From the NCBI GenBank assembly GCA_002269645.1, contig NIVC01002760.1, positions 1 to 64,000 of the forward strand: a DNA stretch of 64,000 bases, in the 5' to 3' direction. The DNA comes from Macrostomum lignano. Its lineage: Eukaryota. Under the pieces are notes generated by a model, which saw only the letters and a program-made list of their open reading frames with translations, ran no database searches and was not told the DNA's origin. A program made the translations under genes and the position numbers. This document shows, piece by piece, positions 1 to 43,563 of the stretch; within the stretch, counting starts at the first letter, position 1; each line of letters starts with the position of its first letter.

Positions 1-2074
1 TCTTGAAGAAATCTGTTATGTATTGTTGTTGGAATTCACGTTTCTCACGTTGGGCTAGAGTCCTATAGTATTCACTCTCTGTTGCGGCAGTGTAAATTTC
101 TCTAATAAGCATAAATGTTTTTTCCTCAGTTTCTAAAAATTCATAATTCTCTCAAAGAAGTGAGCAAACCAATTACATTCTGTATGAATTCATTAGTGTT
201 TTCAATTACGCTTTTCGATCGATATATTTCACCCTTTGTTTGCTTGAAAATTTCTAGTAGGTGTTTCATCTCAGCAAACTTATATTTATCTTAAACTCCT
301 CACTTTTAAATATGATCGGCTTTATAAATGTGTTCTCGCATGATCAATGATGTCGGTATCTGTTGTATATTTGCAGGTAATTAATATTTATAATTCGTCT
401 TTCTGCATCTCCAATATTTTGTCTAAAGTCAGGCTTGTTATTACATTCGACTATAGGGTTGTGTAAAACGACATTACACTGGCTTGAATATAAATTTCTA
501 GCTTGGATAACCCCACCACCAGTTAGTAATTTTATTGATGCATTGTTCAAGACACCACTTACTTCTTGACTGATAACCAACCTCTTTTTATTAATTTGTG
601 CTAGGGCTGGTTGTGGCCTGTCTATTCTTATTGGTAAATTCAAAACATCAGGACTCAGTGGTGCTGCATAATCAGATCCTAGAGTTCTAAGAAGTAGGTT
701 GTCCTCAACCCCTTGCCATTTCCACCAGCGCCATCAAACATTATAAAGTTTTCAACATTCTTACCCATTAGAGCTGTGGCTATAACGGATTCCCAACTTT
801 TTCTATTTTCTGGATCGGGATGAATTTGGTTATGCAGATTAACAATGAAGCCATAGTCGTAATCACTCACTCCAAGTACATCCGAGTAATTATATCCCAC
901 CGATTTAGTAACGTAATCGTCATATCTATACTCGCGAAACTCACCTGTAAGGAGGTCGTATACTCCATCGTTAAACCCTAGCAATTCCATTTCATGTCGA
1001 ATTCAATTTCATTGTTAGTAAACCTCTCTTTGAACAAAGTAGTTACCTGTTTGAGTTTGTTGGCTCCTTGTATTGAATTTATATTCTTTATTGTACTCTG
1101 TAGTTTCTTTTCAAGTGCTTTTAACTTCTCTTTATCATCAGCCGCCTTCTTAATTGCAATTTCGAGTCTAGTCTTTCGGTGGTTTAACTCACTGCTAACA
1201 AGTTCTGATATTTTAAGAAATATGTCATTTATACTACTTAGTTCTCTCCACTTATCATCATCAAAATAGTAAATACCATCGCTATTGTAAATTATATTAT
1301 TCTTCTTATATTCATAAACAAAGTTGGTTATGTTAACGTCAGTGAAATTATCATCAAGATACTCAATCCTACCATAGTAATCATATTTGCTTTTCCATTC
1401 CTTATATTTACAATAATTTTCTTCACTAGCCCATTTCTTCAACGTACCGATAGTAAGTCTGTCCTGTGCATCAGCAGAGCTGGTATTGGTGCTATTCCAC
1501 ACATTTTTACATGCCTCGGAATCGAACTTATCATAATTTACTTTTGACCAATCAGTGAATACTTTGTACATTTCATCACCACTGTCTATGTCGCGGAGTA
1601 TAAGTGCAACCTTGTACCAAGAATCATAGTCTTGGTTTTTGTGTTGTATTATACTTAACAACTTTGAAACTCCTTCACAACTGGGTGATGGAACGGTGCT
1701 TTTTAGTGCCTGTTTATCTTGTTCTTGGATTTCATTTTTATCCGTGGCTTTATTAATCTATTTATCTCATCAAGAATTACATCTGGCATGTCTATAAGTC
1801 CCTCGCACTTTGTACGTTTGTATTCCTTCATTTCACCATCCACATAATAGAAACCTGGTGGAGCAAATACTAAAGCTGGAATATCAAAACCCACACTTTG
1901 TTGAATCGTTACTTTCAATCCATCTACTTTGTTAAAGTAAAAGTGGTGTCCCTTGTTTGTCTGAACAACCCAATCACAATGAGTCATACACAGTTCATTC
2001 AACTCAGGGCATAGGTCAGCATTATCAATATCGATTACGGTTATATTTGAGTTTCTAGTATCTATCCAAATCAT
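1..2074 (-). CDS. PrimPol + PriCT-2 + D5/SF3 helicase multidomain replication protein, split by single-base frameshifts; the N-terminus probably extends towards ~2340
   Basis: 1703-2074: VIDID...TNKGHHFYF (AEP/PrimPol motifs). 978-1661: YDSWYKVAL...FTDWS...W (PriCT-2). 679-990: LGFNDGVYDLLTGEFR (D5_N) and Walker A GAGGNGKG. 344-643: KKRLVISQE...IKLLTGG...ARNLY...ECNNKP (SF3). One extra base in homopolymer runs at ~1740, ~990 and ~705 joins the frames. Confidence 0.9.
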
Positions 2075-2360
2075 GTTGTCTACCTCTGGTCGAAATGGTG
2101 GGAGGTTGAATTCCTATCTGCTTTGTTTGGCATTCCTGACGGTATTTTTTTCTTTGTTTTACTATTCCATGTTACACTGCAACTTCCGAATTTAAAATTA
2201 AGTTCTCATAGAGATTAATTAGTTTATCGTACGATTTTGTTTGTTTTAAATTTGTCAATCTTGGTGGTGGGCATCATGTTTTTGAAGCGGATCCTGTACG
2301 ATCACAGGAGAGAAACTTGAATCGTTTTGATTTTTTCTTTCCATTTTATTTAAAATAAAT

Positions 2361-2700
2361 TTAACAATATAATTCATCAGTTTCAATGTACTTCTCAAGG
2401 GTTATGGGGAGTTTGAAAATGTTCAACTTAAGCATGACGAAAAATTCATCATTCCTTATGTGCTGTCTTGAAATCAATGCCCATTTATCAACATGTGCAA
2501 GATATACTCTGAATGAATACAAATAAGGGGGGCATTTACAATCGTGTGTTTTAATATTTCTGCTTTATATTCATCGTAAGCTTTATCAATTTCTTCAATT
2601 AGTCGAGCCTTTCGAGTGGTGTTTTTATTTGAGAGAAATTTATAATAGAATCATAATACTTTTGTGGCAGTGCATTTCGTACATTTGGGTTAGCTTCCAT
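2361..2700 (-). CDS. Hypothetical ~113-aa viral protein with two apparent frameshifts
   Basis: AAAAATG start at 2700. The reading frame is restored by adding one base at two short runs, and it ends TAA at 2361. No recognisable domain. Confidence 0.4.
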
Positions 2701-3176
2701 TTTTCTATGAAAAATTTAACATTTTTGCTTTCTTTTGGGCAAATTTCTATAGATAATCCAACTTTAGCATTTTCTGTGTATCATTATACTTTGTCTTCTT
2801 AATTTTTCGCTACTTTTGCGCCTACTTCATTGGCAGCTTTTTTATTATTGACTGTCTTTGCGATTCCGGCTGCACCTGCCTGTCTTATGAGAGGTAGATT
2901 GTCTTTTAGTAAGTTGGAATGGTGCTTCTAGTATCAAAATACCCTCTCCATTGTACTCTAGGGCTCACCTATTGTATACTCTCTTAGCTTGCGTGGATCT
3001 GTAACGGGGCACATTTTTGTCTATTTTTAGAAACAGAAAAATAAACACAGGAACAGAAAGACTTTCAGACACCAAAGGCCAAACTCCATTGGGCTAAATG
3101 TGGCCTGCTCAAAGCGGTGATATATTTGTTTAAATTATTACCTTAATAAATGTTTGATATCAAATCATGTTGATAA

Positions 3177-3752
3177 TTATGGCGCATTAGATGGTTCTAT
3201 ATCAGCGCGGCATGTTGGGCACCTAACCATGTTGCCCTCTTGAATTCCAGTGCGATAACATATTTCACAAACTACAGCTCGACAACATGCCATGGTAACG
3301 TTTGGTGGCCGTGGTTCGTGTTGGCAGATTGGACAAAGCCCTTGATTATTCCCCGGCTGAGCTGGATGGTTCTGTACTTGAGTCGGGTTATCCTCTGGTT
3401 GAATATCAGCTAGTTGGTGCTCCATATCTTGGCGATAAGCAACCAAGCGCCTCTCTGCTTCTTGAACGCGACGTTTTTGAAGATAGTAGTTCTAGGAAAG
3501 GGTTTGGTGCGCTCGTATATGATTTTTGTAAACTAAAACCTTATAATGTAAAAACACTTTTTAACTAACCTTTAGCTGATTAAAGAAGCGCTCTTCATTA
3601 GCCAAATTTTGTGGGTTATACTCCAAAAAGATGTTGATGGCAATATCTCTAAACATTGAGTTCCTATGGTGTTGTCGCAAATTTCGCTCTCGAATTCTAA
3701 GAGTTGCTCTAGCGGCAGTAAGCCTCTCGTGCAAATTCGAGAAAGAAGGCAT
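3177..3752 (-). CDS. Coiled-coil + RING-finger protein (165 aa), two exons 3570-3752 and 3177-3491, with a 78-nt spliceosomal intron at 3492-3569
   Basis: Donor AAG|GTTAGT and acceptor CCCTTTCCTAG|AAC. The phase-0 intron contains both in-frame stops. The spliced product ends in CPIC...CC...CEIC...CPTC (RING variant). Confidence 0.8.
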
Positions 3753-3970
3753 TGTAGGAATGATAATTTGTAAGAAGGTAAAGTTAGTAGAGAAAAATTA
3801 CTAGACCTTGCCGCTCGTGGCCATTCATTTATATATTTTTATGACAAAACGTCAGACCCCGCATTCCATTCAGACCAAAACACGAGACCAATTTTTATCT
3901 TTTTATTTTTCGAAATTTTCTTCTCGCGTTTTGGTCTCGCGTTTTGGTCTGAATGGAATGCATGACTCAG

Positions 3971-4448
3971 TGTAGCAAGAGTATAAGATAAAAAATATAA
4001 AACCCCGAATTCCTGTGTTAGTCATCGAGTGAAGTTTGCCTACTTGCTTTGCTATCTTGGTCGGACAATAGCCGACCATATTGTTGCGGTGCGAGCTTGC
4101 TTCTGTGTAGCAAGAGTAGATGAAAAATATAAAACCCCGAATTCCTGTGTTAGTCATCGAGTGAAGTTTGCCTACTTGCTTTGCTATCTTGGTCGGACAA
4201 TAGCCGACCATATTGTTGCGGTGCGAGCTTGCTTCTGTGTAGCAAGAGTATAAGATAAAAAATATACAACCCCGAATTCCTGCGTTACTCATTGAGTAAA
4301 GTTTGCCTACTTGCTTTGCTACGGTGGTTGGACAATAGCCGACCATATTATTGCTCTGCGAGATTGCTTCTGTGTGTAGCAAAAGTAGATGAAAAATATA
4401 CAACCCCGAATTCCTGCGTTAGTCACTGAGTGAAGTTTGCCTACTTGC
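3971..4448. repeat. ~135-bp tandem repeat (about 3.6 copies) in the viral intergenic region
   Basis: Unit starts TGTAGCAA at 3971, 4106, 4238 and 4375. Units contain GAATTC and the hairpin GGTCGG-acaatag-CCGACC. Confidence 0.9.
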
Positions 4449-4544
4449 CAGCTTCCTAAGATAGTAATTTTTGTTTATTGACCCCGTTGGGAGTTTTTGT
4501 GCTTATGTTGTGTGTTTTAATGGTGACTATGGTGTTATGTCTAA

Positions 4545-5890
4545 TTATGTGACAATTATGTCTAAAATCGGATAAAGTTGAAAGCCTGAAACAATAAGAA
4601 CAGTTGATCCTTCAGTGGCTGAATTAATATGCACTCTATAAACAGAGAATTTTTCGATGGAAGCTACTTCGAAATACTTCATCACTCCAGGAACTAAACC
4701 AGCGTTTTCGGTAGAAAAAATATTCTTAAAGTCTCTCTTGTTATTGCTTCCTTTCAGAATAAAACTTTTTGGTTGATTTTTTATAATTTCACTACCTACT
4801 GCTTTGGTTCCTTTCAATCCGAATTTCCAAATTTGAATAGATCGGAAGTTGTACTTCAATGTAAGAATTGGGTTCATTCCTCGATGCCCATTCTGAATTA
4901 GATACTATATAACCCCAATTATCTGACGTTTCAAATGCTCCTGATGACGCTACATTGAAACCCCTTTCTCTATAGTTTTGACGTGTTGCTAGTGGGGAAT
5001 ATATCCTGTATAAGATTTGAAACCTAGTCCCCGCCTTAGTCGCAGCTCCACTGATTCAAGTGCATTGTCTACGTATAGCTTTGGTACAGCTTGAAGTCTA
5101 TCTATAGGCCACACTAAATCATTAACCACTGTTTGTCTCTCAAGTAATTCAACTTTTGTAAGCTTTACGGAACCAGAAAAATTAAGAGAATAATGGAAAT
5201 AATATGAGGGATTGGGTATTTTTTTCCTAAGATGTGCATTGCCCCTTCGTAGTTCAATGGGTGCACTTTGTTCAACAGGTGTCCAGTTTGTTCCATTTAG
5301 GCTCACACTAACAGACCAACCAGGCCACACCTCTCCTTCCAACTTTATCTCTACAACTTTCCTAGCTCTTTTCAGAAATTGAACTCGTATCCACTTGTCT
5401 GAGTCATCTACACTGCTCCATTCTGAAGCTGGGTTTGAATCTGCAACATGATATGCTGCTGAAGAGTTATGAGAAGCGGTCACTTTCATGTCAGGATCGG
5501 AAGCGTTTGAAGTCAGTAATGAAAGAATATTGACTAATTTCGAACTCTCTGTACCCCCACAGTACCTTGCCTTTCTGCTAACAAAGTGTCAATTTCGGTT
5601 TTAGAATACATCTTAGTGTCAATTTCGGTTTTTGTGTAGACATTGTTTACGCGCCCATGAGCATCGTCAATTAATTGTAGCATGGTGATATTCATTGCGT
5701 CACTATCTTCCTTTGAATAAGAGTCTGAAACATTTCTCTTTGCTAACAATAAATTATCTATTTCCTCTCTCTTATATCCTTCATTTTCATTGATGTATCG
5801 ATCATCAGCTAACGCTATTGTTATTCCAGGCGCTATATCATTTGAATTTGACGAGTAACCAAATTGATTGGCAGTATTCTTGTAACTCAT
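4545..5890 (-). CDS. Fibre/spike-like virion protein: YTKxEID repeats plus two discoidin/F5-8C-like domains (frameshifted)
   Basis: 5534-5890 has YSKEDSD/YTKTEIDTK/YSKTEIDTL repeats. One added G in GTGGGGGTAC joins it to 4989-5489 (EWSS...WIRVQF...SLNGTNWT). The later frames give GYIP(P)L...EWASRNEPNSYIEVQLP...IQIWKFGLKG, a second jelly-roll-like module. Confidence 0.6.
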
Positions 5891-6318
5891 TTTAATTGCT
5901 GCAAAATTTCATTATAGCTATCTCCTTTATCGATTCGGTGTAAAAAGTACAGCGACATTTGACCACAATATTTCTTATCAAAAGTTTGAATTTGTTCTTC
6001 CATGTCTCCACATATTCTATTCTTTGTGTGATTAAACTTTTCCATAATTTCCAGTGTGGGTGGTAGTGCATAGGAATCAAAAAAATAAACCTTATCAGGA
6101 GCTGAAAATATAGCTGAATGATGTATACCCCGTTCTTTCGAAGTGTGAATATTTGTCATAAAGTAACCATACTGTGGTAAATCAACAATTTCATCTCTCA
6201 TGGCATAGCGAAATGGTTTTAACTTGAGATATTTTGCCCAATTTATCAGATCAATATTAGTCGTAGTGTCAGTCCCAAACTTTTGTTTAAATGCATTCCA
6301 TGTCTCAGCTTCGCTCAT
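5887..6318 (-). CDS. Adenain-like cysteine (maturation) protease
   Basis: Catalytic motifs in order: GIHH (His), FFDSY (Asp), QIQ (oxyanion Gln), YCGQ (Cys). The likely start is AAAAATG at 6318. Confidence 0.92.
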   Translation of the reverse strand: MSEAETWNAFKQKFGTDTTTNIDLINWAKYLKLKPFRYAMRDEIVDLPQYGYFMTNIHTSKERGIHHSAIFSAPDKVYFFDSYALPPTLEIMEKFNHTKNRICGDMEEQIQTFDKKYCGQMSLYFLHRIDKGDSYNEILQQLK

Positions 6319-6327
6319 TTTTAACAC

Positions 6328-7117
6328 TCATATTTGTCGTACGTGTAGATTTATAAATATTTCCTCGCCATCAAAGTCGTATAGAACACCAGACTCATCT
6401 TCGATGACAAAGTCGAATGTGCTCAACATGTTTGTAGTTAGTGGTAGGTACACAGGATTTGCAGGTCTTGAATAATTTTACTTCCCATTGGGACAGAGAA
6501 CGATGGAATTGAAAGAAGTATTTGCTTATCAATTAAATGATCTCCATTGGCTGGATCAGTGATAAAACCCCCTTTGATATTGAGACAACGAACCATGATC
6601 GCACTTCTAGCTCCGTCTATCCGAGCTGGATTTGGAGCTCTCTCAAATGGTTTCAAATACACTTCCGAATTGAATCCCAACAGTCTTCTAAAGTTATTGG
6701 AATGTGCATCCCTGAAATCAACTTGATAATCTGTGGCTAACCGTAACTCAACTCTACGCGTGTCTAGGCTTGCACTGAAAACAATAGCCCCCTCTTTCCA
6801 ATCATTTGCAGCTGTTAGCAATCTTAGAATCTCGCTTGACAGACTTTTAACTTCCCAAGATCCCGCTTGAATCTTTATTTTTTCCATGTTCTACCACTAT
6901 CCCTCGAGTATCGCAACTCATTATTGCCTCCTTCAATATTGTTAATAGCATCAAAGACTGCAAACTTTTTTATACCAGCTTCGTATTCTCGATCTTCATA
7001 CAAATTTATAGGAGTGCCTAGAGTTTGTCGAAATGGGTTTTTAATTGAAAAGAAGTCAAATGTGCGTTGAAACTTTTTACTCAAGAGGATGTTGACTTTT
7101 TCTATTTCTTTTTCCAT
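6328..7117 (-). CDS. Minor capsid protein (penton), two single-base frameshifts
   Basis: Three frames (6875-7117, 6438-6887, ~6328-6465) join into a Polinton penton-like protein: NNELRYS...IQAGSWEV...LLGF...PANPVYLPL...FVIEDESGVLYDFDGEEIFINLHVRQI*. Confidence 0.85.
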
Positions 7118-7119
7118 TT

Positions 7120-7850
7120 TTAAGCAAGTAATTCTACTAGCTCTTTATCAACATTGTTATGTCCCTCTGCTTTTGCGGCTAGTAATGTCAACACTCTTTC
7201 ACTGAGTCCAGATCCCGGTTTTACTCGATATCCTGGTGGATTATCTTTCAATATCCTTACTGCTTGCTTATAATTCCCACTTGATTTGGCCGCTGGATTT
7301 TTACAATGTTCAATGAGGTTAACATAATCCTGCAATGTTTGCATCTTGAATTGCTTCAGCTCTTCACCATTTTCAGTTACTTTAGGCATTTTGAACAACT
7401 CTTCAAGATCTTCAGAAAATGGCATTCGAACTTCATTGACAATGATGTCTCGACCTTGTTCATGGAATTCAACATCTATTACAGATGATCCAAATATATA
7501 TCCAGCATCAGTTTTTTGAATCCGTATACTAGGCGCTGGTCTTTGAGTTATTGGAATCTTTCCAATTTCTTCAATTATTTTGTCAAATACTTCTAGGGTT
7601 CAAATCGGCCTTTTGGTGTACTTGATTGCGGAACTGGAACTTTTTGATTCTGAAGTTTATCAACAAGGTTGGCATTGACATCAATAAATTCATCGAGCTT
7701 TTCTGTGACAGGTTTTTGAGCTAATGGAGCCACTCTTGCATATAAACTCTCTTCTCCAATTTTCAAATAGCGTTGAGCATCATTTCTGGATTTGTACATT
7801 TCTCGCTGCTTTGCTAAATTAATGAGTTCTCTTATATATTCATTAGTCAT
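7120..7850 (-). CDS. Conserved Maverick-type virion protein (~243 aa) with one frameshift at 7595
   Basis: ORF 7593-7850 joins 7120-7425 through an open frame if GAACCCTAG is read as GAACCCCTAG. The C-terminal GSGL...LTLLAAKAEGHNN resembles the conserved Maverick LLxAxxxAGN motif. Confidence 0.6.
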
Positions 7851-7852
7851 TT

Positions 7853-8622
7853 TTACAATGGGATTTTAGTTAGAACATCCTTATACAAATCTTGCTCATC
7901 CTCATCAGCTCTTGTATTTATATAGATATAGCCATACTTCTTTTTCCAAGCCTCTCTACATTTAGCCTTGAATATAGCGGGTTCATAATTCGTTTCTATA
8001 TTTCTAGCAATGTGATTTAAGTTTGTATCTTTTTGTTTAAAGATTATGTAACATGTCGTATTCTCCCTGACAGTATTGCGATCTAGTTTGGTAAAATTTT
8101 GAGCTAGATAAAAACCACAACAGTTTCCATGCCTGCCTCTCTGAAACAGACTTTCCTGAAATGTTTGATTAGCCTCTCCCAAAACATCGTCCAATATCAC
8201 ACATGTCTTTAGTCCATTATGAAAAATTTCTTCATTTGGAGTATGGGAAAGAGTGACAGAATTTTCTCTATTACTTCTGAATTTTCTGATGTGCTTTGCA
8301 CTCGACCAGGTCGGCTGCCTCGACAAATATGCTTAATATCTTCAGGAGATGCATCCTCACTCACCTGGTAGACATGATAGAGTGAGTTGATAAGAGAAGG
8401 TGGGAGACCATTTTCAAAGCCATGCTTTAGAAACTGATACTCTGGATCCATTTGAGATGCTCTGGGAACATATAAAACTAACTCATTAAAGTCAACTAGT
8501 TTTTCAGGACTTGTAAGAATATGGAATAGTAAATATGTTTTACCCGTATTTGTAGCGCCGATAATACAACATAAAAGAGGATTAGGGAAAATAGGATCAT
8601 GCTGAAATTTTACTTTGGGCAT
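7853..8622 (-). CDS. A32/FtsK-like DNA-packaging ATPase, one frameshift at ~8260-8330
   Basis: Walker A IIGATNTGKT, Walker B VILDD, FQRGRHGN...YLAQNF and A32-type C-terminal WKKKYGYIYIN. Confidence 0.93.
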
Positions 8623-8643
8623 TTAAAAAAAGAAAAAATGACC

Positions 8644-10008
8644 TTATTCGACGCGGGTCATTTGATATTCACTGGTAACTTTTATTACATTCTTTGTTTG
8701 TTCAAGAATTAGTGCAAAAGCAGTCAGCTCAACATTTGTTGACTTCTTGATAAATAATTGAATATTCACTCCACTCTTGACCAGAAACTCATCTTGAGCT
8801 GTTAGATCAAAGCAAAAGATTGGATAGATGGTTAGAAAGTCTTGTTTATTGAATGGAGGAGTTACACCGAAACGGCTGCAGATGTCTTCGTACATTTCAT
8901 ACGCTCTGTGAATGTCTTGAGCTACTGGATCAATTTCAACATAATCATTCGGATACATCACCTGATTTAATCTGACTTGAAGCTGGGTTATTTTCACTGA
9001 ATTTGCTCCAGTTTTGTAAGACACATACTTGTGATCATTAACTATATATGATGGGTTGTTTACGTCATATTTGAAAGCTACAAAGATTGCAAGTGGCATA
9101 TTGGAGATGTTGGCTATGTTCCATGTATATGGACTTCCTTGAATGAGTTGTGGTGGAACCGTTACCCTCTCTGGAAATGATACTGTAATGTCCTTGTTGA
9201 GTGATTTTAGAAAAGCTGCTTCAGCACTGGGTGACAAAGTAATAGCAGGGATCCAAATCTCAAAGCTATTAATAGTTAACTTAGCTTCCGTCCCGGCAGC
9301 TCCAAAGAAAATTTCAGCATCGTTAGTCTTTCTTGTCCATGTGAATTTATATTTAATTCCTTTGCTAATCTTCTGCCAATCAAGGAACCCAATGAGAGGT
9401 GTTAATGATAGTTTGATTGTTCCACCTCTGTTTGGAGCATTAGTGACATTGTTATAATTTTCAAGCCTCCTAATGTATCCAGTATTCGAATCCTTCTTAT
9501 TGAGTCTATTTTTCATAGCGATTGCTGCAGTTCTCACAGCTTCAGCATCTGCGTTGTTTGCTAGAGGTATATCAGAAACAGTCCCAGCATCTCCAGTGTC
9601 TGGAATCCATCCGTATGCTTCTCCAACTTCATTCATTAATTTTGAGTACATTACGGACTTTAAGATTGTGTCATACTCTCCAGGATCATTATAGACTTTC
9701 TTTGTTCCTCCAATGTCAACTATGAGTTGAGAGAAAAGTCTCATAGGCCAATTATGTTCTAGAGTAATGTTCGTATTCAAGTCGGTGTTATCTCGTTGTG
9801 TTATTGAGTATTTTATACAACCGAATGCCTCTGACATGAGAATGTATGACTCTGTTGAATTGACTTCATGAACTATTTGACCTCCTGCAACATTGAGATT
9901 ATTAGTGCTACCTGGAGTTGGAGAAATCTTAATATAGTCTTCTTTCTTTTTGAAAAAGCTAAAAGTTTTGTCCTCATATATGCTCAGTATATCCTTTTTG
10001 TTCTCCAT
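8644..10008 (-). CDS. Double-jelly-roll major capsid protein (454 aa, intact)
   Basis: Intact ORF next to the ATPase and penton. Motifs LFSQLIVDIGG, LTINSFEIWIP, QVRLNQVMYP, YPIFCFDLTAQDE resemble Polinton MCPs. Confidence 0.88.
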   Translation of the reverse strand: MENKKDILSIYEDKTFSFFKKKEDYIKISPTPGSTNNLNVAGGQIVHEVNSTESYILMSEAFGCIKYSITQRDNTDLNTNITLEHNWPMRLFSQLIVDIGGTKKVYNDPGEYDTILKSVMYSKLMNEVGEAYGWIPDTGDAGTVSDIPLANNADAEAVRTAAIAMKNRLNKKDSNTGYIRRLENYNNVTNAPNRGGTIKLSLTPLIGFLDWQKISKGIKYKFTWTRKTNDAEIFFGAAGTEAKLTINSFEIWIPAITLSPSAEAAFLKSLNKDITVSFPERVTVPPQLIQGSPYTWNIANISNMPLAIFVAFKYDVNNPSYIVNDHKYVSYKTGANSVKITQLQVRLNQVMYPNDYVEIDPVAQDIHRAYEMYEDICSRFGVTPPFNKQDFLTIYPIFCFDLTAQDEFLVKSGVNIQLFIKKSTNVELTAFALILEQTKNVIKVTSEYQMTRVE

Positions 10009-10028
10009 TTTTATAAGAGAAATTTCAA

Positions 10029-10481
10029 CTAAGCTTCATGAGGTCTAAGAATTATCCCATTACCCTGTTTCTCCTTTTCAACTTTAAAAGTCTTTAGCAG
10101 CCACTTGACTGCTTCGCTGGGTACTTGTTCGACTCTTTTAGCCGCATCAACTAATACTCCACTCCCTTGAGCCTTTTTCAACTCTTCTAGTTTTTGCCGT
10201 TCAATGCTTTCTATTGTCTTATTATGTTTAGCATTGTTGGCTGTATTAACACTTTTTGCAATCATTGTACCAACTCCTGAGGCTGCTCCGATACCACCCA
10301 AAATTGCTGGTAGTAAGCCTAATAGAGGAATTATTCCACCTTCATGTTCTTTCTGTTTCTCTTGCAATTCTCGAATCTTCTCTTTAGAAAGATATTGCTT
10401 TTGCTTATTTACAGTAACATATCTTGGTTTTCCCTCTCGAACATATCGATTGAGTCTTGCTTCAGTGTTTTTCTCGCTCAT
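10029..10481 (-). CDS. Adenovirus pX-like core protein
   Basis: HEGG-IIPLLGLLPAILGGIGAASG resembles the adenovirus pX C-terminus (MRGG-ILPLLIPLIAAAIGA), following an adenain-type GG site. Confidence 0.7.
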   Translation of the reverse strand: MSEKNTEARLNRYVREGKPRYVTVNKQKQYLSKEKIRELQEKQKEHEGGIIPLLGLLPAILGGIGAASGVGTMIAKSVNTANNAKHNKTIESIERQKLEELKKAQGSGVLVDAAKRVEQVPSEAVKWLLKTFKVEKEKQGNGIILRPHEA

Positions 10482-10489
10482 TTTTAAGG

Positions 10490-10912
10490 TCAGAATTTCT
10501 TCAAACCATTGCCTTGTCTCAAAGACACTTGAGACTGTTCTGCTGTTCCTAGAGCCTTTTTAACAATATCTTGAATAGCCTTATTTGATTGAGAAGCTAT
10601 CTGTTGCTCTTCTTCCATTCTTTTCTTTGCTTCTTTATCTCTACGTTTCTTTTTAATATATTCCAGTTCCTCACCTGCTTTAGACATGTCACTGTATGAT
10701 TTCTTCGCATCGAATATGTTCTTCGCTGTGGTAGCTGTTTTACCTATTGCATCAGCTCCACTCACAATTTTACTTCCATGATTTGATAAAAAGTTTGTGA
10801 CACCACTGATCATATCACCAATTCCTTCACCCTCTTTATCAGCTAGTAGTTGTGAATCAGACGTTTCAATCTGACCTTTCGCCCGTTTGCAGTTTGTTCG
10901 ATAGGCGCTCAT
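10490..10912 (-). CDS. Small virion protein with a GEG-preceded amphipathic helix (pVI/cupiennin-like, putative)
   Basis: AAAAATG at 10912 gives 140 aa. KEGEG-IGDMISGVTNFLSNHGSKIV is amphipathic after a GxG site. The C-terminus is QGNGLKKF. Confidence 0.5.
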   Translation of the reverse strand: MSAYRTNCKRAKGQIETSDSQLLADKEGEGIGDMISGVTNFLSNHGSKIVSGADAIGKTATTAKNIFDAKKSYSDMSKAGEELEYIKKKRRDKEAKKRMEEEQQIASQSNKAIQDIVKKALGTAEQSQVSLRQGNGLKKF

Positions 10913-13104
10913 TTTTAGTTGAAAAATTTGCTGGTAGAAGCTGGGATTTGTAAAATGATCCAATAATTTCTTCTCCATTCTCATCCTCAATAATGTAGGT
11001 TATGGGATTGGAGTAAACTATTTTCTTTATCCTAAACACTTCTGAAATTTTCCAATATCCTCTTCGACCCTTTTCAAAGTGCTCCTTATATCTATAGATA
11101 TGAACTTTGTCACCTACTTTGAAGTTTGGTTTCCCATTTGAATACTCGAAAGTTGGCTTTGGTACTCGCTCAGGATGTTTAGATGCTTCTGAAGGAGTTA
11201 TCAGAATCTCAGAATGGATTGTGTTGTTGTATTTTTCAACAATAGCTGGCAATGTGTGGAGCCACTTCTGATTACCCTGTAGATCAAATTCAAACCAGAG
11301 TTTATTTGTGAGAGTACGATTGAACCTCTCAATCATTGCATTCTTGGACTCGCCATAAATTGAAAACATCTTGTTTATATATTCACCCTTTTCATCCTTC
11401 TTTCTAATGTTGTCTTTTGAAAACGAATATAGCTTGTACATATGCTGATTATAAAACTCCTTGCCTTCATCTACACAAAGTCTCTCTGATCGTCTTCCTG
11501 ATTCCTTAAATACTTTTTGGAAAGCTTCTGCAACTTCCGCTCCCGTCTTTGTTTTCAAAGGAACTGCCCAGGCGTAACGTGTAAAACCATCTATGATAGT
11601 GAGAGCATATTTGTAACCTCTTTCAGGAGGAAGGATAATAATATCTGCATGCCAAATTGTGTCTTTTGCATAGTGAATCATTTTTCTAAATACTCTTGGC
11701 TTTCGATATTCTTTATGCAATTTTACTGCATCTTCATAGCTAAGACCCTTACCATAAATTGTTAGACAGTCTATACAATTGTTGGGGTTGTGAGTATGAA
11801 TGCCTAATCCAAACCGAACTTTAGCCTTGATAATACGCTTTACTAGATTTCGAATGAGTCTCTCTTTCACAGACAAGTCACTGGTTGGAATAGCATCTAA
11901 ATCAGCTATCATTTTTTCATCAGCTATATGCTTCTTTGCTAGAGCTTCCTCTGGATTTGAAGAAGTGTTTTCAGCATCTCTATAGTTTTTGTCATGATAG
12001 TAAGCAGTCCAATCGATTGGGTTAATTGGTAGACTGTCATACCGAGGCCGGTCTGTAATTGGATTGAGTCTCTTGTCTAAATTTGTACCCGGCAGTTGTT
12101 CCTCAATCTTTCGAAAGAGGCTGGACTTTATCTTAAGGCTTCATCAGGATTGACCAGATCCTTCAGCCCCACCCCCATTAAGTCTCTGAACCTTCTCCAT
12201 ATCCTTGTCAACTTCGTTCGGACTTAGGAGCTTGGCTGCGGATTTCCACCATGTCCTCAAGCTTGTTACCATCGAACCATAGGTTCGCGGACGAAGTCCG
12301 ATTGGGAACAGGAATTACCTGTGTTCCTTCAGAAGATTTCTCAACTGAAGTGGTACTTGAGGCTGTTATTGACGTACTAGAATCGGACGGAGTTCCCGCA
12401 ATTTGAAGGTGTCGCCAATCACTAAGCACTTGTTTAATGTTGGTTATAATGTTTTTGTATTGATCACCATAAAGAAATTTCAATGCAAATTCTCCTGTTA
12501 TAAGGGTGATTCCATTGTCTAGTAAAATATTCTTAGGTTCCTTTGTAGTTCTATTGATGCATACATAATACAACTGATAGGTGGGATAAGAATTTTTATA
12601 GTCTAATAGTTTCTGATAATTCCTTTCACGACTTGATGAATTGTCCGTGTTATCAGAAGATTTAAGCTCTAATGCAATCTTTCGCTCAACGTGAACCAGG
12701 TCTATCTTTTTTACCTTCTCGAATCCAAAATAATTTTCTGCTAATATTTCATATAGTCTGCCTAGTCTCATTTGAATAACTTTAATCTTGTGTGAAATTA
12801 TTAACTCTTCTTGGAAAAGATCATGAAGAATTTGATCATGCCCAACCTTATCATCAATTGGTTTCAGAAGAATTTCTCGAATTGTTTGCTCCATTTTTAC
12901 TATAGAAACTTTAACAAGTGCTTATTTGATGACTAGCAAGGACATTGACTTCCTCACTCAGGCCACTACGTAACCTGCAAAAGAATACCCTGGAATATGA
13001 AGTTCTCCTGGGTATTTTCCAGTGGCGAAGATGGGTGGTAGTTTTGTTATAGCTGACTGAATATCTAAAGCATTTCCTAGAAATAATGGTTTACTGAAGG
13101 CCAT
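10866..13104 (-). CDS. Parvovirus-type PLA2 + DDE (rve) integrase fusion, 452 aa after splicing; exons 12973-13104 and 10866-12092
   Basis: Exon 1 is MAFSKPLF...GELHIPGYSFAG (44 codons). Exon 2 is PGTNLDKRLNP...IDWTAYYHDKNY...KHIADEKM...KAKVRFGLG, then IWHADIIIL, IIDGFTRYAWAVPLKTK, LCVDEGKEF, MIERFNRTL. Exon 2 is in frame and stop-free. Confidence 0.92.
12093..12972 (-). ncRNA. Group I self-splicing intron, subgroup IC1 (880 nt)
   Basis: The 5' exon ends in U and pairs CAGGU/GCCUG (P1 U.G), and the intron ends in omega-G. P AAUUGCGGG (12395-12403), Q AAUCCGCAGC (12235-12244), R GUUCAGAGACUU (12180-12191), S AAGAUAAAGUCC (12123-12134). P3 CACCUUC/GGGGGUG, P4 UGCGGG/UCCGCA, P5abc with GAAA L5b, P6a/b, P8, P9.0 AG/CU and P9 with a GAAA loop all form. 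Confidence 0.96.
12208..12894 (-). CDS. Intron-encoded PD-(D/E)xK endonuclease, Eco47II-family restriction-enzyme-like (putative homing endonuclease)
   Basis: It has its own AAAAATG and the motif IDLV...ALELKSSDNTDNSSS. The domain lies in the loop of P2.1 (12-bp stem 12913-12924 / 12423-12434). The C-terminal ~70 codons read through the ribozyme core. Confidence 0.8.
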   Translation of the reverse strand: MEQTIREILLKPIDDKVGHDQILHDLFQEELIISHKIKVIQMRLGRLYEILAENYFGFEKVKKIDLVHVERKIALELKSSDNTDNSSSRERNYQKLLDYKNSYPTYQLYYVCINRTTKEPKNILLDNGITLITGEFALKFLYGDQYKNIITNIKQVLSDWRHLQIAGTPSDSSTSITASSTTSVEKSSEGTQVIPVPNRTSSANLWFDGNKLEDMVEIRSQAPKSERS

Positions 13105-13529
13105 TTTATATATATAAAATTTACTATCGTTGAATTGGATGACACTTTCATATTGTATATACCTGAAATTGCATTAAATTGACCCGAGGATCCAACCTTT
13201 CTCATGGTTTTAGAGCTGGAATCGTGAAAATTGCACTTTTTAAAAAAAATAGAAAATCACAAAAAATCGCTGTTTTCAGACCATTTTCACCTGTTTTTAG
13301 TCATTTTTCAGTTATTTTTAGTGATTTTCAAAATGAGTGAGGGCATGAGGGCGAGGGCACCCCCCCTTTTTAAAAGTATAAAAAATCCGGAAATTCTGTC
13401 TTCTGAGAAATATACCACAGGCCAATGCCCCCCACATGCCCTCACCCTCAACACCCTCAGTCACAGATATATGTATATTTATATATTTTTATATTTATCA
13501 CACCCCACTTGAACCCATGACCTCCTGGT

Positions 13530-13628
13530 AGTAGTAGTATGTTATAAGGGGTTGAGTCATCCAGCGAGCTGGCGCGCAATGCGCCCGAGCAATAAGTGTG
13601 GCGCAACCCCTTATAACATACTACTACT
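13530..13628. repeat. Terminal fold-back: perfect 25-bp inverted repeat around a 49-nt GC-rich spacer
   Basis: AGTAGTAGTATGTTATAAGGGGTTG (13530-13554) is the exact reverse complement of 13604-13628. Confidence 0.95.
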
Positions 13629-27230: not shown

Positions 27231-29817
27231 TTCACGAGAAACGTTTCTAAGGTCTGAGCCATTGATTTTTTGCTTATTCTGTTAGGATAGTTACTTTTAT
27301 AATTAATAATATGTATATTCAAAATAACCACAGCATTAATATAATTTAGAATTGCAAATTTAACTTGAATCTTTTTATTCTGATCAATAATGATCACTGC
27401 AATCAGTTCAGCATAAAGTTCATTATCGCACTCTTCTTAAAATAAAAGTCCAGGACTTTGTTAAAGCTCGTCTCGAGCTGTCTGGCAGGCACTGGCTATT
27501 TCCTCAGTTCGAATTCTTCCAATAGGTACATTTTTTCTTTCGATTCAAAGTACTCGGTTCACTGCAGCCGAATGTTCTGGCGAACACCTTGTTGTTGGAC
27601 ATAGCGCTGTCAAACTTGACTTGGAAGGCGTTGTGCGGCTTGAAGGGCTGGCTAATCTGGTTTGTGATCATGGTACTGTAAAAGAGTTGAGCAATCAGTG
27701 TAAAAAAACACCTGATTGAGTTGATTTTGGTCGGCAGATTCAGCTGTACAAAGTTCATCTGCAGCTTGGCGGGAGTTGCTCAGCTCAATAAATGCTTTGG
27801 TAGCCAGCTCGACGATTTGCAGATCCATAGTGGCGTGCTCAGATGATGGCAGCGCTGACTCAGTACGCTCGTATCTGCAAGCTGCTGATCCGTTGCGTTG
27901 TCACCTACCGAACGGTTGGTTCGAATATTCGCTACATTATTCCTAGCTTTACTGTCCATGCCTACATTGCTATGAGTAGTGGTATTTGAAAAATTGGAAT
28001 CCAGCCTGCTGATGAACCGAAGCCAAACATTATCATTTCTCCTAGCAAGAGCATCAGCAGCAGAAAAAAGGTCTGAGCTGTTCAGCACACATTTGACAAT
28101 TTGTTTCTGCTGCTCTGCAATAGATGATCTGTTTTCACTTATTTGGGTGATTTCTTCCACGACTTGCCAGATCGGTATGCTGAATGCGGTATCCAGACGG
28201 GCAGAGTTAATGAGCCGTAGACTTGCGCTGTTAAATATTGGTGGCGTGCGCAGACCTAGAGGGGTGGAGACAATTTTAGACGAGTAATGAGTGTTTGAAT
28301 ATTGTTGATAAACACTTAAAGGATTCTGCATAAAAAATGAGCAGTACTGTTGAAATTTCTGGCCGTAAAGTATCGGATTCTCAGCTGGGAAGCAAGGCTC
28401 ATCAGATACAGAGCGCCAAAGTTGTTTTCCTCGTCAGCTTCAACTCTTTCGGCGTAGGTTTGAACAAGAGGTGCGTAGATATTCTTTAAAGCTGGAAGAA
28501 ATTCAGCCGAGCTTCTTTGATCCGTAAGTTCGAAAAATTCGCTAGTGTACCTCAGCTGTCTAAGTTGATCAATATCGCTATCAGCCCACCAATTCTGAGA
28601 CTCAAAACTCTGGATAGCAATTTTTTTGACACGTTCAAACACAGTCTCTGCATTGGCTGCATCAGTTGAGTTATAGCATGCCGCATTGTACATGGTGGAT
28701 ACCACTGGTTGGAGCAGTGATTTTGTAGTGTCAAGACAAGACAAGATTATTAGTCTCCCTTAACAAGCTCGGAATCATTTTTGAGAGTTCGAAAAGCCAG
28801 TCAAACAAAATTATCTGAGTGCTTGCTTTATCCAGTATTGAATTAAAGTTCCCATCAAGTGGCATACTATCGGATGTTAAATTAATGAATGCACCTAAAT
28901 AGGCAAACTGATCAGGGTACGCAAGTAACAAACGGCTGCCGTCGAAATTCGATTCCACTTCTTCAAGAAATTTAGTCCATGAAAATGAAACTTGAGTACC
29001 AGCTGAAACACAATAAGTAAAGTTTTCAAGCTGCTTTAGATCCAGGGCCTTGAAGCCTCGTGTAGCTCTCTGCAAGCAAAGCTGCAAGGAATCCAACTTT
29101 GATAGCTCATCCAGAGAGGCCAGCTTTTGCACAATATTCGTCTCCTTCATCTCAATAGAATTCGTTACGTTCCATTTCCTTAGGAATTTCAGAAATTTAT
29201 TTATCTCCAACGACTTGTTGACTTGGCTGCGAAATGAAGCATTTGGCGTGATTGAACCTTTGGGTCTCGGATCGGGATCCGCTGTCTCGTACAGGTGCGT
29301 GCGTGACGCCATTAATAAAAGGAAATATTGGCGAACTGGCGTAAAAATACTCTAAACCTGGCTTCAAACAGATGGAAGCAGGCTCCATAAAATAGGACGT
29401 TGGCACACCGGTCATGGCAAGACTCGCTAGCAGAGACTCGAGCTTAAGAACTCCGCCTCGAAGCCTGAACTCGGTCTCCAGATTGTTGAGCAGCTGGCTG
29501 AAAAGGCGGATCTGAGAAACGCGCCGAGCCTCGTCTCTGCGTCAGAGCCGTTCTGCCAACTAAGGCAGTCGCCGTACAGTCTACTAGCGATTCTGGTCAG
29601 ATTAGAGACCATATCGTCCTGCTGCTGTGCAAGAACAGGTCTTTGTGGGGCAGATTTCCGGCGGCGAATTGGTACATGGACTCGCACGGATTGGCTGACT
29701 GATTCATCCAGCTCGTAGTTGCCGGTTCGTATTGTTCCATATTGCAGACCGTTTTAGTAGCTGCACTTTGCTGTTCCTCCGAGGCTAGAGGAACGGAGTT
29801 TACCGGTTGAGTCGACT

Positions 29818-29864
<47 letters not shown>

Positions 29865-29865
<1 letters not shown>

Positions 29866-29954
29866 GGGACAAGAAGGCACCCTCCGAGCGAACACCATGG
29901 GGTCCCCGGACGCCCCCGGTCCGCGCAACAGGACCGAGGCGACTAATGGCCTTC
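29865..29954 (+). ncRNA. HDV-like self-cleaving ribozyme at the LINE 5' end
   Basis: Nested double pseudoknot in the correct order: P1 GGGGAC/GUCCCC, P2 GAAGGC/GCCUUC, P3 CCC/GGG, P1.1 CC/GG (L3 starts UCC), P4 CGCC..CGGUCC/GGACCG.GGCG, J4/2 CUAAU. G1 coincides with the element boundary. P1 is 6 bp and L3 is atypically long (16 nt). Confidence 0.75.
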
Positions 29955-32900
29955 ACAATCAGCGATGCTCCATATGGAGCGAGAGAGCCAATACTGCGTG
30001 CATGGAGACCGAACCTCAGCAACAACAACAACAAGGGCAACAGATCTCGACCGACGCCCCCCATGCTGAGAGCCTACCTACTGAACAAGTCCTGCGACTG
30101 CGAGGCGGTTGCGACCATCCTGACCGCCGACCCAAGCACGGCCGCCGGAGGAATACCGCGGAGTCGGGCCCAGAGCTCATCCTACAGTTCAACTGTAACG
30201 GCGTCAAGAGCCGTCATACTGAGCTGGCTAAATGGCTCCACGTCAATCGTCCGGCTGCGGTCCTACTGCAGGAAACGAAGCTTGCCAGAGACACAGATTA
30301 CATCCCTCCTACCGGATACTACGTCGCCGCGCGCTGCGACGGTCTTCCTAAAGAGGCCGCCGGCACCCGGGCCACCGAGAACAAGGAAGGGGGGGCACCT
30401 CTCCAGCCCACCCAACCCAGTGGCCCCGAAGCTAACCCTAACGAAGGGGCCAGCGCGGACAACTGCCCCACGCCATGGGCAAACTGCGGCCGCAAGATTA
30501 AGCGCCCACGTTGCCGCATCCGTTGGCCGGCTGACAAGAATGATAAGGCGGAGTGGTGCCGCGGCTGCCGCTCAGGCAGAACCGCCTGCACCCGCAGAGA
30601 CGAGCCGTGGCCACAACCACCGCAACCGCAGCCACAGGCCCAGACCCAGAGTGCGCAACACAATCGTGAGCCGACCGACAACCAACAGGAGCAGGCACGG
30701 AGGACCGCCGCCTCGAAGCCGCCAATAACTCGGCCCAAGAACAGGACGAACAAAGCGACCCACACCAGAGGAGGCACCCTGATCCTAGTGCGCGCCGACA
30801 TTGCGTCCGACACTACGCCATCGCCGCCGGACAACGAACGCCAACTGCTAGACTGCGCCACCGCCACCATCCACCTCAAAGGCCAGGAGCCGATCACGCT
30901 GGTTTCCCTCTACGCACCACCGACCAGCAACCAACGGGGGGAAACCTGGCAACCCCCGCTTCATCTGGTCCCGAACGCCACTGGCCCCACCGTCGTCGCC
31001 GGCGACTTCAACGCCCACGGCAGTTGGGACCGGCACCAAGACGAAGATGAGCGCGGCAAAATAGTGGAAGCCTGGGCGACCTCCCGCAACCTGAGACTTG
31101 CAAACGGCGACTACCATACGCGAACTAACCCAGCAACAGGAGGCAAATCTACTCCGGACCTTACCTGGACCAGCAACAACCTCCTGCAAGGCATCGCGGA
31201 GGGCTGGACGACCCTCGACGATCTGGGGTCCGACCATCTGCCCATCTCCTTCCCGGTCCAGAGACACCCCAGAGCGCCACGGAAGGGCAAGAACCTGCCA
31301 CGGGCCACGTGGTGCTTCCGCAAAGCGGACTGGGGGAGCTTTAAGGACGAACTCACTAAGATCGACGGCCAAAGGGCTGACTACCCAACTCACGGCGTCC
31401 AACTCGCACATCTTCACGCCATCATCTGTAACGACATTCTAACGGCCGCTGCCCATAACATACCCAAAGGGGCCAGAACTGCTGCGAAACCATTCTGGAC
31501 TGACGCCTGCGCCCAAGCCACCCGGGAGTGCAAAGAAGCCCGGCACGTCGCCGAGCTGTCCCCGAGCGACGACAACCTGGCTAGGTTCAAAGCGGCCCGT
31601 AACAACTCCAGAAAGGTGATCCGCCAGGAGAAACGCCGCGCCTGGAGCGAGAAGGCAGCTGAGCTCACCATCAACAGCGACCTTTTCCGCACTCTGCGCC
31701 AGATGCGTGGCGATGGCCCCAAACCAAATAGCGGCGCCTCCCTCCAGAGAAAGAAGACGGGGCAGCAAGAACCATCTCGGCCGGCCCGCACCAACCTGGA
31801 GAAGGCCAACCTGTTCTGTCAGCAATACGCCGCTGTCTCTAGAGTTAAAGGAGGCCCCCAAGACGCCCACACCAATCAAGCCGCGAGAGCAGCCCTCAAC
31901 TCCAGCTGCACGTGCAATGGCTCACGCACCGACATGTGCTCCGCCTTCAGCCTGACCGAATACCGCAGCGCTGTGCGCTCGCTCAAATCCGGGAAGGCAC
32001 CAGGCCCGGACGGAGTTACCAACGACATGCTTAAAAGACTCCCACCGACCACGGACCTGAGGCTCCTGGACCTCATCAACCGGTCTTGGAAGGAAGGAGA
32101 CTGCCCGATGCAATGGAAGAAATCGGTCATCATACCTATCCCCAAGAAAGGGAAAGACCCTAGTAACCCGGAGTCCTACCGCCCAGTGGCACTCACCAGC
32201 AGCATCGCCAAACTGGCCGAACGGATGGTGCTCCAACGCCTGCGCTTTGCCCTCGAGAATTCTGGCCGCCTCAGCAGTACCCAGGCCGGCTTCCGCCGCG
32301 GCCGCTCTACTGAGGAACTCATCGCGAGCACCTGCCAGGACATCTTTGACGGTCTGGAGGCGGTCCCACACCTGCGGTCAGTGCTGTGCCTTCTCGACTT
32401 TAGTCGTGCTTACGACCGGGTCTGGAGGGCTGGGCTGATCGCCAAGCTGAAAAAGCTCGGCATCCCTAACGACGTGCTCCGCTGGATCCGGAGCTTCCTT
32501 GCCGACCGACGTGCCCGCGTACGAGTCGGCAACTGCCTGAGCAATGAAAGAATCTTCAAGGAAGGCCTCCCCCAGGGCAGCGTGCTGGCTCCCCTGCTCT
32601 GGGTCGTCTACATCAACGACCTGGACACGGAGATTAAAGAGGCCCATACGGACTGCAAACTGAAGCTCTACGCAGACGACAGCGCCCTCCTGGCCACCGA
32701 CCGGAGTCTCGACGCCTGCGCTGCGAAGCTCCAACCTGCCCTGGACGCTGTGCACAAATGGTGTCAGACGTGGAAAGTGGAGCTGAGCGCTGCGAAATGC
32801 GTCTACGGAACTTTCACCCTGGACCCCAAGGAAACCAACGGAAAGAAGAAGGTCAGCCTCACCATCGGTGGCCAACCGCTGGCCCATGACCCAGCGCCAC

Positions 32901-43393: not shown

Positions 43394-43563
43394 GCTATAG
43401 GTCAGCCCCGGTGTGAAGGCTAGGAGCTCACCTGCAGGATGAAATTGTACAACAATGCGTTAAAAATTTTCATACTTTAATAATAATAATGGATTATTCT
43501 TTATGGCAGCTATTTTCCATAATAAACAACTCATTTTCTTAACTTCTCAAGTAACATATATAT

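Follow-up and report, generated by a model that had tools for sequence, protein, structure and literature searches.

The first 13,628 bp of the window, a stretch of 64,000 nucleotides from contig NIVC01002760.1 of Macrostomum lignano, are part of an endogenous element of the Polinton/adintovirus type. They raise the question why such an element contains not one GGNCC site (GGACC, GGTCC, GGGCC or GGCCC). An earlier note on this DNA had proposed that the virus avoids these sites as a protection against a nuclease encoded in its own intron. Here we report that the loss is real and specific, that the intron splits what would otherwise be the only GGNCC of the element, and that the nuclease belongs to a family of restriction enzymes. 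We consider it likely that a restriction enzyme with a 5-bp site acts here as a homing endonuclease, since the virus genome offers it one site, and one that synonymous change cannot remove.

Loss of GGNCC from the element

An exact count gave zero for each of the four words in positions 1–13,628, as the earlier note had found by manual scan. The 14 GGCC tetramers that it had estimated were also present, none of them within GGNCC. The first GGNCC of the window is at position 14,658, in host DNA soon past the boundary, again as described. With a G + C content of 36.9%, Markov models of order 0, 1, 2 and 3 predicted 15.7, 16.4, 15.0 and 10.7 sites in the element, and the Poisson p-value for zero ranged from 1.5e-7 to 2.2e-5. 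The earlier estimate of about a dozen sites at roughly 35% G + C was slightly below the Markov value of 15.0.

GGNCC was the most depleted of the 16 gapped 5-mer palindromes at every Markov order. Among 408 spaced words (of the form XY-N(0-2)-ZW) it was the only one with an observed/expected (O/E) ratio of 0 (0 against 15.0; p 3e-7, or about 1e-4 corrected), and the runner-up reached p 0.003. Markov models, as suggested in the earlier note, bore the depletion out, and a similar depletion of many unrelated words, which the note had named as speaking against its proposal, was not seen. One-mismatch neighbours were common (GGNC followed by A, G or T, n = 175).

Codon-aware null models were run on 18 window open reading frames (ORFs; 8625 nt) with 1000 shuffles per null. 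Synonymous shuffling gave a mean of 4.3 GGNCC and reached zero in 11 of 1000 shuffles; shuffling the order of codons gave a mean of 10.6 and never reached zero (0/1000). Gly-Pro dipeptides were absent where 6.0 were expected, and Pro-Gly occurred 10 times. The loss acts at both the synonymous-codon and the dipeptide level. Three ORFs at the far end, taken alone, were not significant (190/1000 and 52/1000 shuffles at zero).

The window begins at the end of the contig, and about 4.5 kb of the element is missing from it. Two copies are complete, C2696 with 17.8 kb and C67 with 18.2 kb, and each of them contained 0 GGNCC against 19.2 expected. In 30 kb of host DNA flanking the element there were 83 GGNCC against 103.5 expected, a milder depletion than that of CCNGG in the same DNA. 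We conclude that the GGNCC depletion of the element is real and specific.

A group I intron at the Gly-Pro junction

The element contains a group I intron of 880 nt (12,093..12,972, minus strand), its boundaries being set by comparison with intron-less copies. Rfam model RF00028 matched at 88.9 bits (gathering threshold 50) with model positions 1–253 over 12,102–12,485 (minus strand), so that the conserved P3–P9 core is present. P1 is formed by the exon end and intron nucleotides 10–14. In the window intron, P1 places a U at the 5' splice site and the last nucleotide is G; the two halves of P7 co-vary between intron variants. By its motifs we take the intron to be of an IC1-like subgroup. In public contigs of four of 24 listed runs, a skip of the intron common to X1 and X17 was an intron-less DNA allele. 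One X6 contig (depth 3.3) lacks the intron from its predicted 5' site onwards and has four differing letters where the flanks join; this weak hint may itself reflect a DNA allele.

The intron separates a Gly and a Pro codon in a conserved loop of a parvovirus-type PLA2 domain that is fused to an integrase. Exon 1 (12,973..13,103, minus strand) ends in the Gly codon, which supplies the U of the 5' splice site. Exon 2 (10,866..12,092, minus strand) holds the remaining PLA2 domain from the Pro codon onwards, in frame with an rve integrase. An uninterrupted homologue (L122) matched both PF08398 and PF00665. The split junction reads GGT|CC. Since by the genetic code GGN-CCN always contains GGNCC, synonymous changes cannot remove the site from this junction. 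The earlier claim that the only viral GGNCC would be the one split by the intron was correct, the count being otherwise zero in 1–13,628. Given GGNCC as the presumed target, the ORF described below lies within an intron whose insertion disrupts that target, which is what characterises an intron-encoded homing endonuclease.

The intron-encoded nuclease

The 5' loop of the intron contains an intact ORF (12,208..12,894, minus strand) for a PD-(D/E)XK nuclease of the Eco47II family, with its domain at about 12,400–12,894 and a C-terminal tail that is a read-through of the ribozyme core. The match to PF09553 (RE_Eco47II) was 29.5 bits (cut-off 25.9, E 7e-7). An AlphaFold2 (AF2) model had a mean pLDDT of 89.7 and placed the nuclease domain in about 165 aa, with no extra DNA-binding part. 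The best structural match of the model was EcoO109I (Z 8.4, root-mean-square deviation 4.1, 162 residues aligned), which Foldseek ranked second after DdmD. EcoO109I recognises the 7-bp site RGGNCCY. Residues D65, E76 and K78 were invariant in 26 of 26 homologues. The ratio of nonsynonymous to synonymous substitution rates (dN/dS) was 0.10–0.16 between families, with dS near saturation, and mostly 0.11–0.25 among diverged copies, ratios that show purifying selection on the predicted ORF.

No match to the window nuclease was found in PHROGs or NCBIfam. Homologues from the Eco47II family are described as GGNCC cutters (PMC10305163), and membership of this family agrees with the GGNCC-type specificity that had been proposed for the enzyme. 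It probably cleaves any GGNCC, and the depletion together with the position of the intron points to a 5-bp recognition site. The start context of the nuclease, (T)AAAATG, is common to most capsid, ATPase and protease-like genes and suggests an internal late promoter.

A methylase was not found: tblastn with four methylases over eight copies gave no match, nor was there one among the 51 frames of at least 75 aa of complete copies. With the sites purged from those copies, the earlier suggestion of escape without a methylase agrees with what they contain.

Copies with and without the intron

The window element and its copies in the same genome were termed family 1. From 375 candidate copies 40 were scored; the intron was present in 26/40 and absent in 14/40. 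All 11 intron-less copies whose junction was read had GGCCC there. In three long copies lacking both intron and nuclease (95–98% identity; not independent) GGNCC was observed once each, against 13.3, 14.5 and 13.0 expected. Outside the junction, nuclease-bearing copies had 0 GGNCC in 188 kb (24 copies) and nuclease-free copies had 6 in 138 kb, confined to 3 of 14 copies (both in aligned element DNA, the copies not being independent).

A second, distant family (family 2, capsid 25–28% identical to that of family 1) showed the same loss. Four copies with the nuclease had no GGNCC, against 11.9, 12.5, 13.0 and 13.1 expected; this is an independent repeat of the depletion in family 1. In the same four copies (L109–L116 set) CCNGG was also reduced, at 6–9 against 19–22, as was CGNAA in one copy.

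The family 2 nuclease is free-standing and lies just upstream of the PLA2-integrase gene. Among the best 30 of 105 matches to it, which were read as loci, the junction was interrupted in all 30, by an IC1-like intron without ORF in 23 and by a second core type in 7. This second core uses the same 5' site, its 3' boundary is uncertain, and by its motifs we presume it to be IE-like. Neither the second type nor the intron of L129 matched Rfam at E 0.001. The second core (L130, L133–L135, L146, L155 and L156) is 79–83% like the IC1-like intron in the 5' and P5-region segments and looks like a swap of cores. The intron-less family 2 copy L122 keeps the junction GGNCC, and no copy examined combines the nuclease with an open junction site. 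Two copies of an old, degraded lineage with Gly-Gln and no junction site (L126, L127) were considered as escapes from the nuclease and rejected; they are decayed and look like one event.

In other family 2 copies an ORF resembling endonuclease VII and HNH enzymes replaces the Eco47II-like gene in the same slot (L117:7907–8476 and L122:1532–2098). When 40 copies with this ORF were scored, 36 were split at the junction, in one the match ended there and three were contiguous; the sequence itself was read for one copy of the split kind and for one of the contiguous kind.

A third family (L042, L067, L239) is very abundant, has separate PLA2, integrase, protein-primed DNA polymerase B (pPolB) and protease genes, and adjoins family 1 copies in C273. 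It gave no nuclease match and at least 150 uninterrupted PLA2 matches; a pattern search did not recover its PLA2 loop. L239, with only 1.7 kb of element, was dropped as a family 3 control.

Five nuclease-free Polinton-like contigs from IMG/VR served as controls and were not depleted, with 75 GGNCC against 84.4 expected (19/21.3, 27/30.0, 10/11.2, 5/8.6 and 14/13.3). This control set does not include L245, which matched weakly within a contig of 732 kb, or L250, which is not like a Polinton.

Possible footprints of homing

In 9 of the 14 family 2 intron carriers listed, the end of exon 1 resembles the PLA2 loops of foreign viruses (L159, L246, L259) and not that of the family's own intron-less allele. 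Such ends are what co-conversion would leave, and are possible, circumstantial traces of it. Intron-less family 1 copies differ from the window at 3–4 of the last 15 bases of exon 1 and at 1 of the first 15 bases of exon 2, a skew which indicates that these copies are not products of clean intron loss. In addition, of seven copies of the far-end repeat, three break off no more than 1 nt from the predicted cut and continue in two different ways; these may be homing footprints, likewise on circumstantial grounds.

In L046, L058 and L075 the far-end copy of the terminal repeat extends up to the point of intron insertion. In two intron-less elements it bears the exon 1 end of intron-bearing copies.

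Relatives of the nuclease

Fifteen metagenomic proteins were 47–64% identical to the nuclease, and several of them end in a read-through of an intron core. An unrelated metagenomic virus (L159) has a PLA2-integrase gene that is split at the same GGT|CC by a group I intron, and this intron contains the nuclease. The nearest relatives outside Polintons are giant-virus restriction-modification pairs: distant homologues (29–36% identity) adjoin C5 methylases in 10/10 giant-virus loci, nine whole and one a fragment. The closest plasmid relatives of one of these giant-virus methylases adjoin Eco47II-family genes in all three records opened. Fold, catalytic motif and an ExKxxxNT segment are common to the nuclease and the Eco47II and giant-virus restriction-modification enzymes. 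Neither the PLA2-integrase protein nor an alignment of integrases gave a match when searched against viral_contigs.

In a tree (to be read with a long-branch warning) bacterial, giant-virus and Polinton-type proteins were separate, and the free-standing family 2 form was nested among intron-borne forms. The free-standing nuclease as the ancestral state was weakened by this nesting.

L040 alone contained 36 GGNCC against 129.6 expected. Giant-virus-type loci, L161 and L187 among them, showed a strong loss of GGSCC with an excess of GGWCC (3 against 64 and 9 against 90), beside C5 methylases.

Gene content of the element and its surroundings

The element is of the Polinton/adintovirus type and covers 1..13,628 of the window, truncated by the contig start; complete copies measure 17.8–18.3 kb. 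It ends in a terminal inverted repeat of about 580 bp (13,048..13,628) with the terminus AGTAGT and a terminal hairpin at 13,530–13,628. Across copies the terminal inverted repeats are 313–632 bp long, and two of three complete copies (C2696 and C944) have 6-bp target duplications. On the minus strand lie a double jelly-roll major capsid protein (8,644..10,008; PF21738, E 1.7e-13), a packaging ATPase (8,209..8,622) whose frame is shorter here than in other copies, C67 having the A32 match, and a Prim-Pol / PriCT-2 / D5 primase-helicase in several pieces (1..2,074). Pfam matched the integrase, capsid and ATPase of the Polinton set. The protease of family 1 had no Pfam match and was named from its likeness to that of family 3. 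A pPolB-like gene lies past the contig start in other copies, as judged from alignment to relatives and motifs found by eye. Several genes of the window copy are fragmented.

Family 1 has pPolB as well as the D5-type primase-helicase (window 1–2,074; L065:3046–6110; L056:6651–9998). Some intron-less copies have a different pPolB module, and an endonuclease-VII-like insert is found within the pPolBs. A 31-bp inverted repeat and direct repeats of about 135 bp lie in the middle of the element (window 3,861–4,450). A small CG-ended double hairpin is present within the intron core (12,273..12,300). In families 1 and 2 such double hairpins are inserted in genes as well as in introns and spacers (L115, with 12 matches; L112; L110:1984–2011); they are absent from family 3 and are possibly a mini mobile element.

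In the host DNA, positions 29,789–34,468 hold an intact ORF of 1559 aa, read by eye as a non-long-terminal-repeat retrotransposon. Positions 38,327–43,459 hold an uninterrupted frame of 1710 aa for an ankyrin-rich ion channel, presumably like the transient receptor potential type and in line with an animal host. Kinase and ankyrin genes are also close to the element.

Discussion

In the scheme that we favour, homing by a 5-bp restriction enzyme, a type II enzyme akin to the giant-virus restriction-modification pairs would have lost its methylase and become the homing endonuclease of a group I intron. Its specificity for a single site would be supplied by the genome and not by a long recognition sequence: the virus lineage would have dropped every GGNCC but one, which the conserved PLA2 loop holds in its pair of Gly and Pro codons. 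With the intron between the two codons the site would be lost in the DNA and the reading frame restored in the RNA, so that carriers would be immune and the intron would take the place of the methylase as antidote. When a carrier and an intron-less relative share a cell, the relative would be cut once, at the insertion point, and either be repaired from the carrier (homing) or be lost. If DNA of the host or of a helper virus were cut as well, this would be incidental or an additional advantage.

Several observations weigh against this scheme. Close relatives lacking both intron and nuclease are purged as well. The earlier note had tied the purge to the intron and had named the same depletion in intron-less relatives as its counter-evidence; the undepleted nuclease-free Polinton-like contigs support the link, but for the close relatives that counter-evidence is present. 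The purge therefore belongs to the whole lineage and not to the intron-bearing copy; because intron-less recipients hold one site and would be cut once, the pattern still fits homing. The host genome carries dozens of intact copies and yet has the 83 GGNCC in the 30 kb beside the element, so that a frequent cutter would put a site-rich host at risk; the simplest guess is that the nuclease is silent while integrated and expressed only in productive replication. Most family 2 IC1-like introns (L129–L158) end in A instead of G (L132 and L145 end in G), and some may therefore splice poorly. The endonuclease-VII-like enzyme could itself drive the spread of the intron, 36/40 copies with it being also intron-bearing. 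Family 3 is about half depleted (7 GGNCC against 14.9, p 0.019, and 4 against 7.2), which could be due to chance or to exposure to the enzyme. As to the nuclease, dN/dS was 0.7–1.3 in five very close or decayed pairs, bacterial proteins of the Eco47II family were only 13–21% identical to it, and PADLOC gave no match. Giant-virus loci were rejected as proof of GGNCC specificity: over a pool of 41 giant-virus-type loci of at least 8 kb, some of them duplicates, 415 GGNCC were found against 578 expected (O/E 0.72), sixth of 16 words.

On a wider reading we are evenly divided. According to it, a 5-bp restriction enzyme from giant-virus restriction-modification systems, now without methylase, spreads among small eukaryotic DNA viruses by aiming at an invariant Gly-Pro codon pair, as a selfish drive that works by genome purging. 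It would force lineages to shed the site and the Gly-Pro dipeptide, with self-splicing introns of several types serving as the required antidote, and would also be a weapon against host or helper DNA.

The purge may alternatively have come first and from outside. A giant or other virus restricting GGNCC would have removed the sites, an ORF-less intron would have shielded the Gly-Pro site, and the nuclease, by then harmless, would have been captured last, with homing following. The ten giant-virus homologues beside C5 methylases and the three plasmid records with Eco47II-family genes beside methylase relatives are in line with such a history, as are the nuclease-free copies, which are purged and mostly intron-bearing, and the partial depletion of family 3. 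No helper virus has been identified, however, and stray sites occur in nuclease-free copies but in none that bear the nuclease, which is the pattern to be expected were the purge kept up by the enzyme of the element itself. We regard this order of events as unlikely; it is compatible with homing by the restriction enzyme and does not exclude it.

It is rather doubtful that the nuclease is mainly a weapon against host chromatin, helper or competitor DNA late in infection, with the intron as a shield and its mobility incidental. The enzyme is from a family of frequent cutters, its start context is that of structural genes, host DNA and family 3 are rich in sites and free-standing copies exist; chlorovirus enzymes, moreover, degrade host DNA (PMC7019647). 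The gene is optional, though: it is absent from 14 of the 40 scored family 1 copies, and in family 2 an endonuclease-VII-like ORF often takes its slot, which is typical of selfish endonuclease genes. In unrelated viruses it lies within or beside an intron at its own target. The comparison with chloroviruses made in the earlier note holds in part. Their restriction enzymes do degrade host DNA, but always have adjacent methylases and are reported to bring about no virus exclusion (PMC7019647).

It is very unlikely that the enzyme is a homing endonuclease of the usual kind, whose longer site has GGNCC in its middle, and that the purge results from weak off-target cutting at the core. The nearest structure recognises 7 bp, and a longer site would spare the host. 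Characterised homing endonucleases use sites of more than 14 bp, or of 15–20 bp for nuclear His-Cys box enzymes (PMC3984707, PMC3943268, PMC3679873). Against a longer site, in two families none of the four GGNCC variants occurs in any context, the junction flanks differ widely among carrier viruses, and the modelled domain of about 165 aa would leave no extra part for DNA binding. A compositional or mutational artefact of an AT-rich virus can be dismissed, for although the order-3 expectation is as low as 10.7 and the synonymous shuffle gives p of about 0.011 per family, the loss has a pooled p of 6e-15, recurs in two distant families and agrees with the position of the intron and with the family to which its nuclease belongs, and the artefact is refuted by the undepleted nuclease-free controls of the same G + C content and by the uniqueness of the word among 408.

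By its organisation the system is a putative form of intron homing whose specificity has an unusual origin. Group I homing endonucleases, including the PD-(D/E)XK enzyme I-Ssp6803I, likewise have their ORF in an intron loop, an intron that disrupts the site, immune carriers and targets in codons for critical residues, and their long sites avoid toxicity (PMC3984707, PMC3943268). Here the enzyme is from a family of 5-bp restriction enzymes, and uniqueness apparently comes from purging of the genome. In collaborative homing, a free-standing endonuclease serves an intron without ORF (PMC3984707). Family 2 resembles this arrangement, its free-standing nuclease being followed closely by the target, which an intron without ORF interrupts, with family 1 and L159 as the composite intron. 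It differs in the eukaryotic virus, the restriction-family enzyme and the two intron types at one site, and going by the tree the direction may be the reverse. Compared with type II restriction-modification systems of the Eco47II family, chloroviruses and giant viruses, no methylase was found here, site loss and the intron would protect in its place, and the gene is intron-borne and optional.

A review states that nuclear group I introns occur in microbial eukaryotes and there in rRNA genes only. Among eukaryotic DNA viruses, RF00028 introns within protein genes are described for chloroviruses (PMC7019647) and for Polinton-like viruses of a few protists, the latter with no annotated endonuclease in the text available (PMC12220804). 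Those hosts are protists or algae; the present intron lies in a PLA2-integrase gene, encodes a nuclease and has an animal host. Adintoviruses and Polintons with PLA2X (PMC8502044) share with the element pPolB, integrase, capsid, ATPase, a parvovirus-type PLA2, terminal repeats and a 6-bp duplication, whereas here PLA2 and integrase form one fused gene, a group I intron interrupts its PLA2 part, and a D5-type primase-helicase is added. Pandoraviruses avoid AGCT for a cause left unexplained (10.1101/712018). They too have wholly lost one short palindrome, but here a candidate enzyme and a single retained site occur in the same genome. A 2026 preprint (10.64898/2026.10.13.758929) mentions unexplained nucleases and possible restriction-modification systems in these viruses. 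The available text of PMC11296320, PMC8502044, 10.1101/2023.08.22.554363 and 10.1101/712018 contains no such system. The literature searched, which mostly did not cover subscription journals, did not describe any viral group I intron that harbours a nuclease of a restriction family and goes together with genome-wide site loss.

The system suggests another route to safe homing, in which a frequent cutter is made unique by genome-wide editing and the intron is the antidote, and it would let one trace how a restriction enzyme turned into a homing endonuclease. It supplies a candidate cause for the total loss of a word from a eukaryotic virus, and may be a case of a nuclease shaping dipeptide use across a proteome. 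Since one and the same genome contains the free-standing, the intron-borne, the intron-only and the empty form, models of mobile-intron origin are directly testable here. If the wider reading is true, working group I introns would be present in protein genes of animal nuclear proviruses.

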